This document shows positions 7,858 to 53,500 of a stretch of 64,000 nucleotides of DNA, piece by piece. The position numbers were made by a program, and so were the translations under genes. Origin of the DNA: an uncultured Clostridium sp. (lineage in GTDB: Bacteria; Bacillota; Clostridia; TANB77; CAG-508); contig CAYWAH010000001.1 of NCBI GenBank assembly GCA_964456505.1, positions 37,464 through 101,463 of the forward strand, in the 5' to 3' direction. The notes under the pieces are model-generated. The model was not told the DNA's origin, did no database searches, and worked only from the letters and a program-made list of their open reading frames with translations. Positions within the stretch are counted from its first letter, which is position 1; every line of letters begins with the position of its first letter.

Positions 7858-7886
7858 TTGACATAATTATTAAAAAGTTGCATAAT
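7858..7886 (+). promoter_or_regulatory. Strong sigma-A promoter: -35 TTGACA (7858-7863), 17 nt, -10 CATAAT (7881-7886)
   Basis: The -35 hexamer is consensus and the spacing is optimal. The promoter lies about 70 nt upstream of the 7959 ORF. Confidence 0.55.
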
Positions 7887-7958
7887 AAAAGTGTAACTTA
7901 TTAATTTATATTATGATTATTCTTTATATTTATTTAAGTTAGAAAGGAAAAAGAACAT

Positions 7959-18516: not shown

Positions 18517-19983
18517 TTATAAATTATACATATTATCTTTTTTAATCCATACTGAAACACTTCCACCATTGCAATAGAAAATTCCGTTTCCTTCGTTATC
18601 AACATAAACAGTTTCTTTAACATTTCCTGTACAATCATAAAGAATAGAGTTTGCTAAATTTTTTCCAACATTCATTTGCTTTCCACCACCAGGCCCATCG
18701 CTTAATATTACAGCCATTCCAGAATCTTGATGATAATAATCGCCTTCTCTAGTCCAACCGATTATATCATGATCATCAAAATAATCATGTTCTTCGCCAT
18801 AAGCAATATTTTTTCTCACTTGCAAAAATATATCTAAAAGTTCTTTCATAGGAGGAATATTTTTTGCAGGAATTCCATAATAGTCACCATAAAAAATGCA
18901 AGGAATTCCAACATTTCTAAACATTATCATTGCATAGGCAAGAGGCTTAAACCATTCTTGAACCCATGATTCCAATGATTGACCTGGCTCAGTATCATGA
19001 TTATCAACAAATGTTACTGCTTTTGATGGTCTTCTATCAACAAGGGTGTCTTCAAAAATTGAACCCATATCAAAATTGCCATTACTCTTTGAGGCAATTT
19101 GAAATCTATCATGTAGTGGAACATCAAATAAACTTGTAATATTGGGATTATAATCAAGGTAGTACAAAAGAGTATCAATGTTTACACTAAAATATTCACC
19201 AACTGTATAAAAAGTTTTATTAAAATATGAATTCATATCTTCTAGCCAACTCTTATAAAAAGAATATCTTATGTGCTTTATTGCATCAAGCCTGAAACCA
19301 TCAACATGAGTTTCATTTACAAACCATTTTCCCCAATTATGAAGATCTTCAACCATATCGTGATTGTTGAAGTCAACATCATCTCCCATTAAGTAATCAT
19401 AATTTCCACGTTCTTTATCAACATCTTCAGCAAATCTTTTACCATAAAATCTAAAAATTCCATTTTCTTTTTTTAAGTCATCATAATCAACTGAAGAAAA
19501 ATCTGTCCAATCTAATTTTAAAGATGAATATTTATTATTTCTACCTTCAAAATTAAACTTTGTCCATGTTTTTATTTTTCTGTAATCTTCTATAACTTTA
19601 TTTCTATCGTCATAATCTACTTTGCAAGCCAATACTTCTTCAGATTCATCAGCGCCCATTTTATGATTTAAAACTATATCTGCTAATACTTGTATTCCTT
19701 CAACTTGCAAAGAGTTGATTGCAGCAATATATTGATCTTTTGTACCATATTTTGTGCGAACAGTTCCTTTTTGATTAAATTCGCCTAAATCGTACAAATC
19801 ATATACGCCATAACCTGTATCATTTATTCCACTAGCAGCTTTAAAAGCAGGTGGAAGCCACACAGAGGTTATTCCATTTTTCTTTAATTCAGGAGCGGCA
19901 TTTATCAATTTTGTCCATAAGTTGCAATCATTTGGTAAATACCATTCAAAACATTGCATCATAGTTTTATTATTATTTTTCAT
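18517..19983 (-). CDS. Cytoplasmic alpha-amylase (GH13, AmyA-like)
   Basis: The N-terminus MMQCFEWYLP resembles E. coli AmyA LLQCFHWYYP. The GH13 motifs GFRLDAIKH, EYF and FVDNHD are present. A GAGGT RBS lies 6 nt before the first ATG on the - strand. Confidence 0.8.
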   Translation of the reverse strand: MKNNNKTMMQCFEWYLPNDCNLWTKLINAAPELKKNGITSVWLPPAFKAASGINDTGYGVYDLYDLGEFNQKGTVRTKYGTKDQYIAAINSLQVEGIQVLADIVLNHKMGADESEEVLACKVDYDDRNKVIEDYRKIKTWTKFNFEGRNNKYSSLKLDWTDFSSVDYDDLKKENGIFRFYGKRFAEDVDKERGNYDYLMGDDVDFNNHDMVEDLHNWGKWFVNETHVDGFRLDAIKHIRYSFYKSWLEDMNSYFNKTFYTVGEYFSVNIDTLLYYLDYNPNITSLFDVPLHDRFQIASKSNGNFDMGSIFEDTLVDRRPSKAVTFVDNHDTEPGQSLESWVQEWFKPLAYAMIMFRNVGIPCIFYGDYYGIPAKNIPPMKELLDIFLQVRKNIAYGEEHDYFDDHDIIGWTREGDYYHQDSGMAVILSDGPGGGKQMNVGKNLANSILYDCTGNVKETVYVDNEGNGIFYCNGGSVSVWIKKDNMYNL

Positions 19984-20119
19984 TTGTTTACCTCGTATAA
20001 TAAATTTATAGCTGAAGCTTTTATTATATAAGCATTTAGTTTATTACTAATTTGTCTTTTATAAAATTTGCAAATTTTTTACATATCAATTATAAAATAA
20101 AAAATTAAACAAAACAAGA

Positions 20120-20989
20120 CTAACGCTCAAAATTATCTAAACTTTCAAATTGATAATTTTGATTTTTGATTTCTTTTATAATATCGTCTAAAATATTAGC
20201 ATTATCTTTTGAAGTAGCATGTAATAACATAATTTCTCCATTATGCAAATTATCAAGAATTTTCTTTTTTGCATATTCTTCTTTTCCTTGTTTATTGTCA
20301 TCCCAATCATCATAGGCAAAAGACCAAAGCACAGGAGTAAAGCCAAGTTTTTTTACATACGCTAAATTGGCTTCACTAAATTCACCTTTGGGCGGTCTCA
20401 TATATTTCATTTCATAGTCAAAATTTTCATATACTTTTTTATTTAAATCAAGCAATTCTTTATTTATTACTTCCTCTGTACAATCAGGCATACTTTTGTG
20501 ATTAACAGTATGATTCCCTAAAATATGACCATCGTTAATTATTCTTTGAATTATATCTGGACTAGTTTTTACAAATTGACCTGTAATAAAAAATGTAGCA
20601 TTGACATTATTGTTTTTCAGTGTGTCCAAAATTTGATTCATATAACCTCCATCATAACCAACATCAAATGTTAAATAGATTTTGTTAGAATTTTTATTTC
20701 CAATTGAAAGCCCGTCAAATTCATCTAATATTTCTTTTGCGTTTTTATCCAGTTCAGGTTGCTCATGATTTTTACTTCTTTTCAATCCCCAGCATATTTT
20801 CTTTGTACTCAATGCTTTTGAACTTACCATAATGTAATTATTAACTTTTTTAGCAACGTTTAATCCTTTAAAATCAGAGCAAATACTTGCAGTAAATATA
20901 ATAAAAATAACAAACAGTAAAAATACAATAACAACAACAATGTTTATTGCTTTATTCATCAACCAGTTTTTAAAACAGAAAAAATTCAT
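20120..20989 (-). CDS. Polysaccharide deacetylase (CE4, NodB domain; PdaA/PdaB-like), membrane-anchored
   Basis: The NodB motifs are TFDVGYD (TFDDG-like) and HTVNHKSM (HxxxH). It has an N-terminal TM helix. An AGAGGA RBS lies 5 nt before the ATG (MNFFCF) at 20989. Confidence 0.7.
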   Translation of the reverse strand: MNFFCFKNWLMNKAINIVVVIVFLLFVIFIIFTASICSDFKGLNVAKKVNNYIMVSSKALSTKKICWGLKRSKNHEQPELDKNAKEILDEFDGLSIGNKNSNKIYLTFDVGYDGGYMNQILDTLKNNNVNATFFITGQFVKTSPDIIQRIINDGHILGNHTVNHKSMPDCTEEVINKELLDLNKKVYENFDYEMKYMRPPKGEFSEANLAYVKKLGFTPVLWSFAYDDWDDNKQGKEEYAKKKILDNLHNGEIMLLHATSKDNANILDDIIKEIKNQNYQFESLDNFER

Positions 20990-21178
20990 ACCAATCCTCT
21001 TCAAAAATATTTATTAAAATATATTCTATACTGATTAAAATATGAAAAAACTTAAATAAAAATAACATAATATTTAATAGTGTGATTTTGAATTTGTAAT
21101 TACTATATTTTTTGTAAATCCAATTTATAAATAAAAAATGAATGCTTAAAATGCAAAATTTAATTGAATTGTAACAAC

Positions 21179-21216
21179 TTTTTCACACTTCTTTCACATT
21201 TCTAGGTTATTATAAT
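21179..21216 (+). promoter_or_regulatory. htrA promoter: direct octamer repeats TTTTCACA / CTTTCACA (21179-21198) overlapping the -35 region, -10 TATAAT (21211-21216)
   Basis: The tandem repeat TTTCACA-N4-TTTCACA lies immediately upstream of a consensus -10. It resembles the CssR-type repeats of Bacillus htrA/htrB promoters. Confidence 0.4.
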
Positions 21217-21297
21217 GCTAGATGTTGAAAAATAATTTTCAATAGGCTATAGTATAGATATAAATTATTTATGTAATTTGAAAGGAAGTATTTTAAA

Positions 21298-22548
21298 ATG
21301 GATAATAATTATATTAATGCAAATGCTGCAGAAATGAAAAACAAAGTAAACAAGCAATCACAGAAAAAAGAAAAAGGAAATCATTCATTTGGAAAAACTG
21401 TAGTAATTCCTTTTGTAAGTGGTATACTTGGTGCTGCATTAGTTATGGGTACATGTTATAATATACCTGCAGTACATTCAGCATTAACGGAAAATAAAAA
21501 TACTACAACAGATAGTTCAGCAAATATTAATTATAATAACGTAAATACAAATTTGGTTTCACTATCTAATTTTTCTGATACAGGAGTTTATGTTGCACAA
21601 AAAGTTTTACCTTCAGTAGTTGGTATTAAAGTAACTTACTCTGTAAATAGTGTATTTTCTAGCAAATTATCAACAGCTTCTGCCGAAGGCTCAGGTGTAA
21701 TAATAAGTGATGATGGATATATTTTGACAAACAATCATGTTGTATCAAGCTCAACAACAAATAGTTCTTCAAACTTATTTTATGAAATTCAAGAAGCTAC
21801 AAAAATTACAGTTTCATTATATAATGATAAAACTGAATATGAAGCAAAGATTGTTGGAACAGATGCTCAAACAGATTTAGCTGTTATTAAAATTGATAAG
21901 ACTGGATTGACCGCTGCAACATTAGGAGATTCTGATGCTGTTCAAGTTGGTGAATGGTGCATGGCAATTGGAAATCCATTAGGAATGGAAAGCAGTGTTA
22001 CAACAGGTTCAATAAGTGCATTAAATAGAAGTGTAACAGATAGTGAAGGAAAAGAATATAATGTTATTCAAACAGATGCCGCTATAAATTCAGGAAATAG
22101 TGGTGGAGCTTTAGTTAATAGCAAAGGTGAAGTCATAGGAATTAATACAATCAAGGCATCAGGAACAGGTGTTGAAGGATTAGGATTTGCAATTCCAATC
22201 AATTCAACAAAGTCAATTTATAGTGATTTGATTCAATACAATAAAGTTAAGAGACCTTATATTGGAATATCAGGAAGCGACATAACTGATGAAGTTATAA
22301 AAGCAAATCCAACATATAATCTAGTAAAAGGTGCTTATGTAAGAAGTGTTGAAGATTATTCTCCAGCTCAAAGAGCAGGACTACAAGTAGGAGACATAAT
22401 TGTAAAAGCTGATGGTCAAACTGTTGAAACAATGGATCAATTAAATGAAATTAAGAATAAACATTCAATAGGAGACACGATAAAATTAACAATTAATAGA
22501 AATGAAAAAGAACAAGATATAGAAATAAAATTAGCAGAACAACCATAG
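21298..22548 (+). CDS. htrA: HtrA/DegP-family serine protease with C-terminal PDZ domain
   Basis: An N-terminal TM anchor is followed by the trypsin-like catalytic triad motifs TNNHVV, DLAVIKI and GNSGGAL, and then a PDZ domain. Confidence 0.8.
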   Translation: MDNNYINANAAEMKNKVNKQSQKKEKGNHSFGKTVVIPFVSGILGAALVMGTCYNIPAVHSALTENKNTTTDSSANINYNNVNTNLVSLSNFSDTGVYVAQKVLPSVVGIKVTYSVNSVFSSKLSTASAEGSGVIISDDGYILTNNHVVSSSTTNSSSNLFYEIQEATKITVSLYNDKTEYEAKIVGTDAQTDLAVIKIDKTGLTAATLGDSDAVQVGEWCMAIGNPLGMESSVTTGSISALNRSVTDSEGKEYNVIQTDAAINSGNSGGALVNSKGEVIGINTIKASGTGVEGLGFAIPINSTKSIYSDLIQYNKVKRPYIGISGSDITDEVIKANPTYNLVKGAYVRSVEDYSPAQRAGLQVGDIIVKADGQTVETMDQLNEIKNKHSIGDTIKLTINRNEKEQDIEIKLAEQP

Positions 22549-22645
22549 TTAGTTCACACAATGGACAAATTCTATTATTATAATATAAGCATAATCAGAT
22601 AGAGATACCTGGTTATAATATAGAAAACATCCCCTTTTATTTTCA

Positions 22646-22680
22646 AAAAAGCAATGGCATACGCCATTGCTTTTTTTATT
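22646..22680 (+). terminator. Rho-independent terminator after htrA
   Basis: The perfect stem AGCAATGGC / GCCATTGCT has loop ATAC and is followed by TTTTTTTATT. Confidence 0.7.
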
Positions 22681-22748
22681 ATTCAAATTAATAGGTAAAT
22701 ATTCTTGAAAAATTACAGTTGCAATTGTATAATTATTTTGGAGGAAAA

Positions 22749-23636
22749 ATGGATACATATAAATATAATAATATATTTTTAACTAATAATATTAATAAAG
22801 CAAATTGTATAACACATTCTGGAACATTTCATGTTGATGATGTTATGGCTACGGTTTTTCTTAGCAAAATATTAGATAGAGTTATATTGCTTAGAGTTCC
22901 AACAACTAATGAGTTGCAAACACAAAATAAAGTTATTTTTGACATTGACTATGGTGAATTTGATCATCATCAGAAGAATAGAAATGGAAAAAGAAAAAAT
23001 GGAATATACTATTCTTCTATTGGTTTGCTATGGAAAAAATACGGAATGGAATATTTGAGAGAACAGAATGTTAAATATTTAGAAAAAACTTTTGAATATA
23101 TGGATAGTGAGCTTATTCAATATATTGATGCTACCGATAATATGCAACAAGAATATTTAAAAAGTAAAATTTCTCCTGATTTTGTTAAACTTTGTAATCC
23201 TCAGTGGAATGAAGATATTCCTGAAGAAGAAGGATTTATTAATGCAGTAAAACTAGGCAATGAATTTTGGGACATATATATAAAACACGCAATTGCAGAA
23301 GTTGAAGCAATAGAAATTATTCTAGATAAAGTAAATAATTCAGATGATATTTATGTTGCGTTTGAAAAAGATTTACCATATAGAAAGGCAATTCCAAAAA
23401 TAGAAAATAAAAAAGTCAAGTATTTAATATTTAAATCAAGAAGACAAGGCTATGATATTAGAGCAATATATGATGCACATAAATTTAAAAGTCAAATTTC
23501 TAAAGCAAACGACTTGGATAAAATAAAAAAAGAAACAAATGTCAGTGATTTAATTTATACAGATACTAATGGAAAATTATGTTGTACTAACACATTGGAG
23601 AGTGCAATAAAAATAATAAAATTTAATGAAAGTTAG
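22749..23636 (+). CDS. MYG1/UPF0160-family metal-dependent hydrolase
   Basis: A GGAGG RBS lies 6 nt before the ATG at 22749. The N-terminal HSGTFHVDDVMA motif is the MYG1 metal-binding signature. Confidence 0.6.
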   Translation: MDTYKYNNIFLTNNINKANCITHSGTFHVDDVMATVFLSKILDRVILLRVPTTNELQTQNKVIFDIDYGEFDHHQKNRNGKRKNGIYYSSIGLLWKKYGMEYLREQNVKYLEKTFEYMDSELIQYIDATDNMQQEYLKSKISPDFVKLCNPQWNEDIPEEEGFINAVKLGNEFWDIYIKHAIAEVEAIEIILDKVNNSDDIYVAFEKDLPYRKAIPKIENKKVKYLIFKSRRQGYDIRAIYDAHKFKSQISKANDLDKIKKETNVSDLIYTDTNGKLCCTNTLESAIKIIKFNES

Positions 23637-23723
23637 TTTGAGATAATGATTTATGTTATTAAATACTGAAATAATTTTATAATACAATTGTTTTTAAAAA
23701 ATTATTATATCCTATTATTTGCA

Positions 23724-23752
23724 TTGAAAAAGCAAGCCACATGTGATAGAAT
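23724..23752 (+). promoter_or_regulatory. Promoter: -35 TTGAAA (23724-23729), 17 nt, -10 TAGAAT (23747-23752)
   Basis: The hexamers and spacing are good. The promoter lies about 40 nt upstream of the SPASM-protein ORF. Confidence 0.45.
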
Positions 23753-23793
23753 GTAAAGCGAAAATAATAGAAGATTGGGAAAAAATATGAGAA

Positions 23794-24978
23794 ATGATTG
23801 AAAATATAAAATACCTAGATCAAAATACATGCCTAGATATGAATGATTTCAATTTTATGATAGGTTTTGTAGATGATCCAGAACATGATATTTTACATGC
23901 AATGACAGAAGAAGAACAAGTTGATTTTTATAAAAGAATGAATCAAGAATTTAGAGGAACATCATTAGATTATGGAGTACGTAATACATGGTTTGCAGAA
24001 TTCAATCCAACTTATTGCTCAAATTGTGATAATTGTGGTGAAAAGTTCTTCTTATTAGAGCGTAACGGAGATATTTATTCTTGTGTTAGAGGACAAAAAC
24101 ATAATGAATTTTATTATGGAAATATTTATAAAGACGATGTCCAAACAATACTTCAAAATGCACAGAATAAAATATTTGAAATAGATAAAAAAATTGGCTT
24201 CAATGAAGAATGTGCAAATTGCAAGTACTTGTATTTGTGCAAAACAGGTTGTCCATTTGTAAGAAATAAATATAATTCAAATAAATCATATACTTGCAAA
24301 CTTCAACAAGAAATTTATAAAGACAATCCTGACTTATATCCAGAGGATATTCATAATGATGGAAGCGTTTATGTTTATATTAAAAAAGTACATCCTGAAC
24401 TTATGGAAAAATATTATCCAAAAGACAAAAAAATAGTATGGGATGATATTCCAAGTTTAACATCAATAATTGAGCAAGATCCGAAATTACAAAAAATATA
24501 TTCCAAAGAAGCATTCATTTTAAATGTTGATGGAACAGAATATAAATTGGAATCACAAATTTTAAGAAGTAAAAGAGAAATAATTTATTTGACTGATGAA
24601 AGCAAAGTTAAATTATATATAAAAAAAGGTGTATTGGAAGATAGCTTATATCCTGCTAGCAATTCTCTTTATATGATGTTATTAAGTGGAAATTTAACAC
24701 AATATGGAGATGAAAATAGAGTAAAGCAAGAGCACATTATGACACATCAAATCTTTACGAATACAATTCAAAAAAATCCATCTGACAAAGAAAATTATTA
24801 TTGTGTTGATATTTCTAAAATATTAGGATTATATTACAACAAACTTGCAAAAGATGTTCCAAATAATTTGTTTTTCACAACATCTGATTGGAGAGATTAT
24901 CATTATTTAAAGCATAAAAATAATGCATACTATCACATACAAGCAATAAACTTACCATTTCAAAATATAGAATTCTAG
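23794..24978 (+). CDS. SPASM-domain protein lacking a radical-SAM core, with a C-terminal domain of about 230 aa and unknown function
   Basis: The SPASM cysteine pattern is textbook: CSNCDNC...G-DIYS-C, then CANCKYLYLCKTGC (Cx2Cx5Cx3C), then a downstream YTC. No CxxxCxxC radical-SAM motif occurs in the 75 aa before it. A separate promoter lies upstream. Confidence 0.5.
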   Translation: MIENIKYLDQNTCLDMNDFNFMIGFVDDPEHDILHAMTEEEQVDFYKRMNQEFRGTSLDYGVRNTWFAEFNPTYCSNCDNCGEKFFLLERNGDIYSCVRGQKHNEFYYGNIYKDDVQTILQNAQNKIFEIDKKIGFNEECANCKYLYLCKTGCPFVRNKYNSNKSYTCKLQQEIYKDNPDLYPEDIHNDGSVYVYIKKVHPELMEKYYPKDKKIVWDDIPSLTSIIEQDPKLQKIYSKEAFILNVDGTEYKLESQILRSKREIIYLTDESKVKLYIKKGVLEDSLYPASNSLYMMLLSGNLTQYGDENRVKQEHIMTHQIFTNTIQKNPSDKENYYCVDISKILGLYYNKLAKDVPNNLFFTTSDWRDYHYLKHKNNAYYHIQAINLPFQNIEF

Positions 24979-24994
24979 TGGTGGTTCATCTGGA

Positions 24995-25030
24995 AATAAC
25001 AATAATAACAACAACAATAATAATAACAAT
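24995..25030 (+). repeat. Trinucleotide microsatellite (AAY)12, which would encode poly-Asn in the +1 frame relative to the upstream gene
   Basis: aataacaataataacaacaacaataataataacaat starts 17 nt after the TAG stop of the SPASM-protein gene. The open frame NSSGGSSGN12S has no start codon. Confidence 0.7.
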
Positions 25031-25058
25031 AGCTAAATGAATAAAATCTAATAAAATA

Positions 25059-25088
25059 TTTGTAAAAATAATATTTTTGTGATATTAT
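25059..25088 (+). promoter_or_regulatory. gatCAB promoter: -35 TTGTAA, TG-extended -10 TGaTATTAT; shares the 13-mer TTGTGATATTATT with the glmM promoter
   Basis: ttgtaa (25059-25064) is followed about 18 nt later by tgtgatattat (25078-25088). Confidence 0.45.
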
Positions 25089-25111
25089 TAAATGAATTTT
25101 AGGAGGGTAAT

Positions 25112-25405
25112 ATGAACGTTAGCAAAGAAGAATTACTACATATAGCTAAATTAGCGGATTTAGAGATAAAAGAGAATGAAGTTCCTGAATATCTAAAAAA
25201 TCTTGAAGAGATTTTAAATTATACTAATGTTATCGATGAAGTAAATGTTGACAATTGTGAAGAAACAATTGGAGCAAATGATAATTACAATGTTTTCAGA
25301 AAAGATGAAGTAAAGAAATTCGATAATGTAAAAGGCATAATGGATAATGCTCAAGATATTGAAAATCATATGTTTAAAATACCAAAAGTTATTAATGAAG
25401 AATAG
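25112..25405 (+). CDS. gatC: Asp-tRNA(Asn)/Glu-tRNA(Gln) amidotransferase subunit C
   Basis: A GGAGGG RBS precedes the start. The protein is 97 aa and carries the GatC motif LAKL..L...E.........I..Y. It lies immediately upstream of gatA-gatB. Confidence 0.8.
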   Translation: MNVSKEELLHIAKLADLEIKENEVPEYLKNLEEILNYTNVIDEVNVDNCEETIGANDNYNVFRKDEVKKFDNVKGIMDNAQDIENHMFKIPKVINEE

Positions 25406-25414
25406 GAGAATGGA

Positions 25415-26881
25415 ATGTCTGATATTACAGAATTAACAGTACATGAATTAGTTGAAAAATTAAATAATAAGGAACTAACTTCGAGTGAGATTGTTGAAGC
25501 GTATTCAAAAAAAATAAAGGAAAATGATCAAAAAGTCGATGCTTTTATTTCTACATATTTAGATGAAGCAGGGAAAAAGGCAGAAGAAGTTGATAAAGAA
25601 AACATAGATAGAAGCAAATATGAATTTGCAGGAATTCCTATTGGAATAAAAGATAATATTTGTGTAAATGGCACAAAAACTACTTGCGCTTCAAAAATGC
25701 TTGAGAATTTTGTTGCACCATATGATGCTACAGTAATTGAAAAATTGAATGATGAAAAAATAATCAGCCTTGGAAAATTAAATTTGGATGAATTTGCAAT
25801 GGGGAGTTCTACAGAAAACTCTGCATTTAAAGTTACTCATAACCCATGGGATTTGAACAAAGTTCCAGGAGGCTCATCAGGCGGATGCGCTGCAGCTGTT
25901 GCAGCAAATGAGGTACCTTGGGCATTAGGCTCAGATACAGGAGGATCAATTAGAGAGCCAGCATCTTTTTGTGGAGTAGTTGGATTGAAACCTACTTATG
26001 GACTAGTTTCAAGATATGGATTGGTTGCGTTTGCGTCATCACTTGATCAAATTGGACCAATTACAAAAGATGTAAAAGATTCTGCAATGCTAATGAATTT
26101 GATTACAGGACATGATGAAAAAGATTCTACTTCTTATGATAGACCAAAAGTTGACTATACAAAATGCTTGAAAAATGATGTAAAAGGATTGAAAATCGGT
26201 GTTCCAAAAGAGTTCTTTGGAGAAGGTATTAATGAAGAAGTAAAGAACAAATTGAATGAGGCAATTGAAACATACAAATCTTTAGGAGCAGAAGTCGAAG
26301 AATGCTCATTAGATGTTGCAAAATATGCACTTGCCGCTTACTATATAATCGCATGTGCTGAAGCCAGTTCAAACCTTGGAAGATTTGATGGAATTAGATA
26401 TGGCTATAGAGCAAAAGATTATAAAGATTTGAATGATTTATTTGTTAAATCAAGAAGTGAAGCATTTGGACCAGAAGTTAAAAGAAGAATAATTTTAGGA
26501 ACGTATGTATTGTCATCAGGATATTATGATGCTTATTACAAAAAGGCACAGAAAGTTAGAACTGTAATAAAAAATAGATTTGATGAATGCTTCAAAAAAT
26601 ATGATGTTTTGTTAACACCAGTTTGCCCAACAACAGCATTTGAAATAGGCTCAAAAACACAAGATCCTATGTCAATGTATTTGGCAGATATTTGCACAGT
26701 ATCAATAAATATAGCATCTGTTCCAGCAATATCAATTCCGGCAGGCGTAGATAAAAACAATATGCCAATTGGAATGCAATTGATAGGAAATAGATTCCAA
26801 GAAGAAACAATACTTAATGCTGCATATACATTTGAACAAAAAATCAAATTTAGAGAAAATCATAAACCAATAGTAAAATAG
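25415..26881 (+). CDS. gatA: Glutamyl-tRNA(Gln) amidotransferase subunit A
   Basis: It carries the amidase signature [13 protein letters not shown], the catalytic Ser in GSDTGGSIR and the Lys in IGIKDN. The protein is 488 aa. Confidence 0.9.
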
Positions 26882-28692: not shown

Positions 28693-28767
28693 TTAGCCGT
28701 AGAGTGATTTTACGAAAGCAAATAAATTGGGGATTAAATAAATAATAATACATAAAGAGGTTTGACT

Positions 28768-52945: not shown

Positions 52946-53500
52946 ATGAAATTATGGGTAATCATATTAATTATTATTGCTGTTTTAATAGTTCTTTGGA
53001 TTATTAATACATATAATAGTTTAATACGCTTAAAAAACAAAGTTCAAGAAGCATTTGCAACAATGGATGTTTATTTAAAGAAAAGATGGGACTTAGTTCC
53101 AAACCTTGTTGAAGTTGTAAAAGGCTATGCAAAGCACGAAGAATCTACATTTAAAGAAATAGCAGAATTAAGATCAGGCTCATATGGAGATATGTCTAAT
53201 GCTGATAAAATTGATGCTAACAATAAATTAAGCGCACAACTTTCAAAAATAGTTGCAGTTGCTGAAAACTATCCTGAATTAAAAGCAAATGAAAACTTTG
53301 TAAAATTACAAGGACAATTAGAAGACTTTGAAAAAGACATAGCAGAATCTAGAAAATACTACAATGCTGTTGTATTAAAATACAATAATGCTGTTATGTT
53401 ATTCCCACAAAACATAGTTGCTTCAATGTTCCATTTCACAACAGAAAAAATGTTTGAAGCTGCTGAAAATGAACGTGAGAATGTAAAAGTTCAATTCTAA
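52946..53500 (+). CDS. lemA: LemA-family membrane protein
   Basis: A GAGGGGAG RBS lies 8 nt upstream. An N-terminal TM helix is followed by the conserved LemA core YNSLIRLKN...A.....L.KR.DL.PNLVE.VK.Y..HE. Confidence 0.75.
   Translation: MKLWVIILIIIAVLIVLWIINTYNSLIRLKNKVQEAFATMDVYLKKRWDLVPNLVEVVKGYAKHEESTFKEIAELRSGSYGDMSNADKIDANNKLSAQLSKIVAVAENYPELKANENFVKLQGQLEDFEKDIAESRKYYNAVVLKYNNAVMLFPQNIVASMFHFTTEKMFEAAENERENVKVQF

Follow-up and report, generated by a model that had tools for sequence, protein, structure and literature searches.

A probable relic of a radical-SAM gene cassette with a poly-asparagine partner, left by two deletions in an uncultured Clostridium

The 64,000-nucleotide stretch of an uncultured Clostridium sp. 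analysed here (hereafter the window; 27.8% GC, with a SASP gene) contains an open reading frame (ORF) of 394 codons whose product has a SPASM domain and lacks the core of the radical S-adenosylmethionine (SAM) enzymes. Its gene content and its nearest relatives, uncultured gut Clostridia, mark the organism as a spore-forming Firmicute of low GC. We consider it likely that positions 23770-25036 are the decayed remainder of a radical-SAM gene cassette, and that the ORF is a non-functional relic in the window strain. In its intact form, this mobile cassette consists of a membrane protein with leucine-rich repeats (LRR), a 588-aa enzyme, a partner protein of ~119 aa with a poly-asparagine tail and, often, a Zn-ribbon membrane protein. 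A first deletion, common to all sampled members of the species, removed the LRR gene together with the first ~176 codons of the enzyme, including its CxxxCxxC motif, and left a 406-codon ORF starting at a new ATG. A second deletion, seen in the window strain only, then took 328 bp across the overlap of enzyme and partner genes, leaving 20 orphan partner codons. With the radical chemistry gone and the presumed substrate or partner gone too, the ORF would most likely have lost its function.

The family to which the remnant ORF belongs is one of full-length radical-SAM enzymes. A homologue search covering 5.8 billion proteins returned 2121 homologues, and among the best 120 listed nearly every one has a length of 585-590 aa and carries PF04055 (Radical_SAM) and PF13353 (Fer4_12) ahead of the part that matches the remnant. 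The full-length homologues listed share 66-77% identity with it over 96-100% of its length, which places the ORF product within this family. In an alignment of 22 homologues the motif CNMQCKYC at residues 18-25 is nearly invariant (C18, C22 and C25 in the full-length protein P0002), and the remnant begins opposite residue ~186. P0002 is 77% identical to the remnant by BLASTP and ~76% by tblastn over residues 177-578; on the whole window these residues align to 23770-24975 as the sole match, and no homologue of residues 1-176 is found within the 64 kb. The radical-SAM core is absent from the remnant, and so are the last 10-12 residues of the enzyme. These alignments show the ORF to be a copy, truncated at its 5' end, of a radical-SAM/SPASM gene of 588 aa. 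An earlier note on this DNA had hesitated between the relic of a peptide-modifying radical-SAM locus and a new SPASM-only architecture, and had proposed to look among relatives for full-length radical-SAM homologues. These exist, the nearest being 77% identical; the first of its two suggestions was essentially right, and the second fails, since the family consists of full-length proteins from which the window copy derives by deletion.

The 5' break can be read at nucleotide level. Homology to full-length genes extends 24 nt upstream of the remnant ATG and across an in-frame TGA at 23788-23790, so that EDWEKI*EMIENIKYL in the window aligns with EHYDKTDEIIKDIKYL in full-length proteins. The ATG itself stands where full-length proteins have Ile, and it probably arose by mutation from an Ile codon. 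Just upstream of the residual homology, at ~23757-23770, lies the deletion junction. The MYG1-family gene further upstream ends at 23636, which leaves no room for the missing 176 codons, and there is no trace of them. The same junction occurs in ten other loci of the species (L086-L095), which were found via the neighbouring GatC protein in independent metagenome assemblies, are 98-99.9% identical and form, together with the window, the species sample used below. In line with this, a protein cluster at 90% identity contains six sequences of 406 aa and one of 394 aa (an NCBI entry identical to the remnant product) and no full-length member.

The break comes close to where the Pfam Radical_SAM match (residues 12-188) gives way to the remainder of the protein, as might be expected of a split enzyme whose radical-SAM half has its gene at some other place in the genome and pairs with the half containing the SPASM and C-terminal domains. 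We regard this as highly improbable. An in-frame stop codon and residual homology ahead of the ATG mark a deletion junction and not a designed gene start, the first 176 residues have no counterpart in the window, and no member consisting of the N-terminal half only was seen at a conserved locus.

The part that survives is readily recognized. NCBIfam TIGR04085 matches residues 81-168 of the remnant product with 49.5 bits (cut-off 27; E 4e-13) and Pfam PF13186 residues 80-144 with 23.2 bits (cut-off 21.5; E 8e-5), both above their curated cut-offs. Measured against the SPASM motif C-x9-15-G-x4-C ... C-x2-C-x5-C-x3-C ... C, the cysteines are spaced as C75-x2-C78-x2-C81, G92-x4-C97, C140-x2-C143-x5-C149-x3-C153 and C168, and all nine family cysteines are kept. 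The SPASM domain that the earlier note had read from these cysteines is thereby borne out, and so is its observation that no CxxxCxxC motif precedes the domain: re-inspection finds none in the ORF, the first 75 residues hold C13 and C75 as their sole cysteines, and PF04055 gives no match, which leaves the product outside the radical-SAM superfamily. Within a partial TIM barrel, the CxxxCxxC motif holds the [4Fe-4S] cluster that cleaves SAM. From what is established for the superfamily, a product lacking this cluster therefore cannot cleave SAM or generate the 5'-deoxyadenosyl radical.

The ORF had also been credited with its own promoter. A promoter-like site does lie upstream, and it is a consensus match only, of a kind that is common in this AT-rich region, where 23 such sites were found against 15 expected. 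It sits in intergenic DNA that was joined to the enzyme gene by the 5' deletion, within a stretch (23667-23793) common to all ten other loci of the species. An Rfam scan of 23400-25300 gave no match, nor did sequence searches of the PDB with the remnant ORF or with the family profile.

The 3' end of the ORF is a second deletion scar. Bases 1-6042 of Logan contig L001 match the window at 18933-24974 (blastn, 99.6% identity) and bases 6371-7940 match it at 24973-26542 (98.2% identity), with 328 extra bases in between; comparison with L095, likewise at 99.6% identity, yields the same 328-bp deletion in the window. In L001 the truncated enzyme ORF has 406 aa and overlaps by 8 nt a 119-aa partner gene whose product ends in ...IIPHYDPSSSSSSGGSSG-N12-S. 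Similarly, the ten other loci of the species have a 406-aa ORF and then an overlapping, intact 119-aa partner ending in ...PHYDPSSSSSSGGSSG-N12-S. The deletion took the last 12 codons of the enzyme ORF along with codons 1-99 of the partner gene and joined enzyme codon 394 out of frame to the last 20 partner codons; as 328 bp make no whole number of codons, the reading frame of the enzyme meets a TAG (24976-24978) at once. The remainder of the partner gene keeps no start codon. None of the ten other loci carries this deletion, which is seen in the window strain only. The idea that the repeat behind the ORF is the scar of a lost downstream domain came close: downstream sequence has been lost, and what is left there is the 3' end of a gene, not of a domain.

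Both truncations might in principle be artefacts of assembly or binning, the true genome carrying a full-length gene. The 328-bp deletion is seen in one assembly only, many of the related contigs are metagenomic, and one of them (L097) is of low coverage and has frameshifts. The 5' junction, however, recurs in 10 assemblies that are independent and stem from different samples, flanked there by as much as 239 kb of sequence, and the 328-bp deletion is flanked by no repeat on which an assembly could have collapsed, only by a 2-nt microhomology. An artefact is therefore very unlikely.

The orphan partner codons explain the repeat that follows the ORF. The (AAY)12 tract encodes the conserved poly-Asn tail of the partner, and the NSSGGSSG-N12-S that the earlier note had translated in the +1 frame is correct and represents the true frame of the deleted gene. 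The tract is the sole run of at least seven Asn codons, in any frame, in the window. In 77 related loci from other species the partner tail ranges from N6 to N19 with a median of 13 and is followed by 0-1 residue and the stop codon; it is kept even in the IMG/VR contig L101, which, judged by eye, is less AT-rich than the window.

The earlier note had also suggested that this tract might be a contingency-type microsatellite, with slipped-strand mispairing turning a C-terminal extension on or off. A +1 shift near the stop codon would indeed add SSGGSSG-N12-S, and in another lineage the tail differs by one Asn between the near-identical loci L002 (N11) and L003 (N12). Slippage of a trinucleotide unit preserves the frame, however, and cannot produce such a switch; the tract lies 3' of the stop codon; and the repeat-length polymorphism sought in close relatives is absent, as the window and 10/10 other loci share one and the same codon string, AAT AAC AAT AAT AAC AAC AAC AAT AAT AAT AAC AAT. 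Moreover, the repeat is imperfect, mixing AAT and AAC with at most three identical codons in succession, and the same limit holds in 52 of the 77 related loci; mixed codon use is the rule. As the tract is already accounted for as the conserved coding end of the partner gene, and since all 11 copies in the species agree, we give the switch practically no credence; for this species it is refuted.

Genomes that carry the intact cassette show what has been lost. In a scan of one genome per GTDB species the enzyme gene was found in 246 stretches, 80 of which were fetched, and neighbours were clustered over ~81 loci. The hosts are uncultured gut Clostridia, Bacilli and 'Tenericutes'-type lineages, Lachnospiraceae, Oscillospiraceae and others. 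Four types of neighbour recur around the enzyme gene (Table 1); the cassette was noted in the related loci L002-L085 and L101, with L002:4378-8117 and L101:4845-9130 as examples. No protease or dedicated exporter recurs among the neighbours, and ABC transporters occur in 9 loci only. Homologues of the LRR_5 and Zn-ribbon proteins were not found in the window, where the remnant stands outside any intact cassette.

The partner protein combines a conserved N-terminal segment (P.TY.E...K.C..L..Y) with a PHY motif, present in 70/80 sequences, and a stretch of 50% Ser and 19% Gly in addition to the poly-Asn tail. Its position next to the enzyme gene makes it a candidate substrate of the enzyme, and very probably it is the precursor that the earlier note had expected nearby and found missing: in the window, the gene has been deleted. 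The cassette proteins reach no curated NCBIfam or PADLOC family, and Pfam, NCBIfam and PADLOC scans of the partner, the LRR protein and the C-terminal-domain protein revealed no informative family. Among the PADLOC defence systems there was only a weak match of pVip to the generic radical-SAM core of P0002 (E 1e-7, residues 15-120), and none for the partner or the LRR protein. One partner homologue matched an archaeal virus capsid family below threshold, which we treated as chance. A literature search found no paper on the cassette and none linking poly-Asn to radical SAM.

Whether the truncated protein could have retained a function has to be judged from the population data, and several of these speak against a simple relic. 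The remnant ORF is open in 11/11 samples and every SPASM cysteine is kept; its private changes at family-invariant columns number five, within the range of 0-6 observed for full-length members; the variable codons within the species comprise 27 synonymous and 6 non-synonymous ones, a ratio of non-synonymous to synonymous diversity (piN/piS) of 0.06 that would normally indicate purifying selection; and the 328-bp deletion rests on one assembly, that of the window (product identical to NCBI protein P0260). On this basis the 406-aa protein with its SPASM and C-terminal domains could be a stand-alone Fe-S protein maintained by selection, working with the partner by, for example, binding it, chaperoning it or carrying out redox chemistry on it, and the window strain would just have lost this system. 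In support of such a maintained derivative, no stop or frameshift has entered the ORF in spite of the AT-rich genome, the motifs of the C-terminal domain are kept as well, the partner is intact and overlapping in 10/10 other strains, no close full-length relative is known, and a second lineage (L096, protein P0058) has independently lost the N-terminus next to an intact partner.

The distribution of the variation weakens this case. All variable sites of the ORF lie 3' of 24103, in its 3' two-thirds, and fall into two recombining haplotype blocks, whereas hardly any variation is found in the MYG1 gene or in the ~440 bp surrounding the truncation junction. Along 21516-26881, compared with L086-L095, piS is ~0.008 in MYG1, zero in the first 100 codons of the remnant and 0.07-0.08 in its 3' part and in gatA; gatA is about as diverse as the remnant (piS 0.081). 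These values point to a boundary within the ORF that a recent recombination or sweep may have left. The pattern agrees with a truncation allele that is young and was carried by recombination across older diversity, dating from the time when the gene was whole. Because the variation is block-structured and absent around the junction, the selection signal is ambiguous and may predate the truncation, and the piN/piS of 0.06 is no proof of function. The rare variants, about 4 synonymous and 3 non-synonymous, are too few to decide. Furthermore, the ATG has a weak ribosome-binding site (GGGA, 13 nt upstream), and the pair is dispensable, as shown by the window strain, in which the partner and the C-terminus of the enzyme have been deleted. 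We therefore hold a maintained protein to be unlikely, though it is the alternative to be taken most seriously, and retain the decayed cassette as our explanation.

The second lineage points in the same direction. L096:440-2070 (ENA ERZ28614917) encodes an N-terminally truncated enzyme of 423 aa with a breakpoint near residue 160, followed by an intact 120-aa partner. Since a full-length relative, P0262, exists at >=90% identity, this truncation represents recent decay and not a form that has become stable. The first ~55 residues of the L096 protein differ from the otherwise near-identical P0262, which suggests that its 5' end is mosaic or recombinant. A breakpoint shared with the window, as a site-specific process would leave, was considered and ruled out: the homology in L096 reaches ~15 codons further upstream and the DNA upstream of it is unrelated, so that the two events are independent.

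Among characterized enzymes, the anaerobic sulfatase maturase anSMEcpe (TIGR03942) is the best profile and structural match for the radical-SAM/SPASM part of the family (E 3e-27 over P0002 residues 15-362). For the remnant ORF, the best whole-family similarity is likewise to anaerobic sulfatase maturase and to DynA/DarE-type maturases, in each case to the C-terminal third. The predicted full-length enzyme superposes on anSMEcpe structures 4K36-4K39 (Foldseek E 7e-7, target-normalised template-modelling (TM) score 0.60-0.64, 16-18% identity), its N-terminal two-thirds being the part that models onto them, and the 7-Cys SPASM motif that binds two auxiliary clusters in anSMEcpe is kept in the remnant. 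However, P0002 and the remnant ORF score only 95.5 and 55.5 bits against the TIGR03942 equivalog cut-off of 349 bits, and neither falls into that family. Unlike anSMEcpe, the family has an extra C-terminal domain of ~225 aa and no sulfatase neighbour, and the window copy is without any radical-SAM core.

A weak profile similarity (E 1e-14 to 1e-27) links the enzyme to maturases of RiPPs (peptides that the ribosome makes and that are modified after translation), namely DynA, DarE/DarW, PapB, HxsB and the cyclophane-forming AmcB/YhhB/GrrM, with all scores far below the family cut-offs. As in these systems, the enzyme gene is followed by an overlapping small ORF with a low-complexity C-terminus, a possible substrate. 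In contrast to RiPP precursors, this partner has ~119 aa and a conserved N-terminal region and is not a short leader/core peptide, and the cassette has LRR_5 and Zn-ribbon membrane proteins instead of the conserved protease or exporter of RiPP clusters.

SPASM proteins naturally without a radical-SAM site are represented by the NCBIfam families 'pseudo-rSAM protein, GG-Bacteroidales system' and 'grasp-with-spasm' SPASM maturase. The remnant resembles them in having a SPASM domain without CxxxCxxC, yet neither is among its NCBIfam matches up to E 10, and in the remnant the site is missing through deletion from a full-length ancestor and not as a family trait.

A full-length homologue occurs in the Campylobacter phage CAM-P21 (WKW83149.1), with 33.5% identity over 97% of P0002, and shares the C-terminal domain motifs FFTT..R.YHY and NAFYH.Q.INLPF. 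Its gene (L102, MW462221.2: 28053-29810) is located in the phage tail module, between tail-fibre and tail-sheath genes, and the next gene is DUF1353-like (128 aa, by sequence reading alone) and not a poly-Asn partner.

The C-terminal domain itself is particular to the family. An AlphaFold2 model of the ~216 residues, which the remnant keeps in full, is mostly beta with a mean confidence (pLDDT) of 80 and a predicted TM score (pTM) of 0.75, and a Foldseek search against the PDB gave no fold match (best E 0.05, TM <0.26). The remark that the C-terminal ~230 aa resemble nothing recognizable thus holds for known families as well as for PDB folds. A phmmer search with the domain on 1.84 billion representatives yielded 93 hits; every hit of ~590-616 aa has the domain at its C-terminus, and shorter hits were assumed to be fragments.

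For the window, the outcome is a correction: the gene that annotation would label a 'SPASM domain protein' is a truncated relic, and the repeat behind it is neither a switch nor intergenic DNA. As such the finding is largely ordinary, a pair of genes decaying through two successive deletions. The lead it provides is the parent cassette, which is compact and highly conserved among gut Firmicutes and their relatives, with at least 246 species-representative genomes containing it, and is not present in working form in the window. If the enzyme acts on the poly-Asn tail or on the PHY/Ser-rich segment of the partner, this would be a new radical-SAM post-translational modification. Should the protein without the radical-SAM core be maintained after all, the parent cassette would be a new kind of radical-SAM system modifying a poly-Asn-tailed protein.

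Table 1. Features of the remnant locus in the window and of the intact cassette in other genomes.
Feature	Position	Strand	Basis or extent
Promoter-like site TTGAAA, 17 nt, TG-n-TAGAAT	23724-23752	+	Consensus scan, 10/12 matches
Residual homology to codons 177-184 of the full-length gene	23770-23793	+	tblastn; DNA alignment with full-length genes
Remnant ORF, 394 aa	23794-24978	+	Corresponds to ~residues 186-578 of the 588-aa enzyme (radical-SAM, SPASM and C-terminal domains)
SPASM auxiliary Fe-S domain, residues 75-168	24016-24297	+	PF13186, TIGR04085; invariant Cys columns in the alignment
Family-specific C-terminal domain, residues 179-394	24328-24975	+	Mostly beta-sheet
Junction of the 328-bp deletion, 2-nt TT microhomology	24973-24974	.	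blastn and alignment against L001 and L095
Last 20 partner codons and stop (SSGGSSG-N12-S-TAA)	24974-25036	+	Same as the 3' end of the partner gene (119 aa) in L001 and in 9 further loci
(AAY)12 tract, 36 nt	24995-25030	+	Tandem Repeats Finder (TRF); inside the partner 3' remainder
Promoter-like site TTGTAA, 17 nt, TG-TATTAT, of the gatCAB operon	25060-25088	+	Consensus scan; remnant locus ends here
Membrane protein with BspA-type LRR_5 repeats	Immediately upstream of the enzyme gene	same strand	77 loci
Poly-Asn partner, ~119 aa	Downstream, overlapping the enzyme gene		79 loci
Zn-ribbon protein with membrane segments, ~339 aa	After the partner		38 loci
LemA + DUF2207 pair	Further upstream of the enzyme gene		About 20 loci

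Downstream of the remnant locus, gatC starts at 25112, and Pfam confirms GatC, Amidase and GatB. In the species, the interval between MYG1 and gatC (23637-25111 in the window, set against L086-L095) is a hotspot of insertions and deletions. In L086 an HD-domain gene and a 191-aa ORF are inserted at 23666/23667; this ORF was considered as the missing N-terminal half of the enzyme and rejected, being unrelated and part of the HD-domain gene insertion. Six loci (L087-L090, L092 and L093) have a gene for a PHP-domain protein of 286 aa between the partner and gatC.

Elsewhere in the window, a LemA-family gene at 52997-53497 (+) is 57% identical to the LemA that some other genomes have upstream of the cassette; 28 kb separate it from the remnant, with no evidence of a link. 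At 28704-28739, between the SASP gene and glmM, 36 intergenic bases are missing from the ~99%-identical L086, L090 and L094. In L087 and L089 a gene of 888-910 aa replaces the SASP gene region after gatB.

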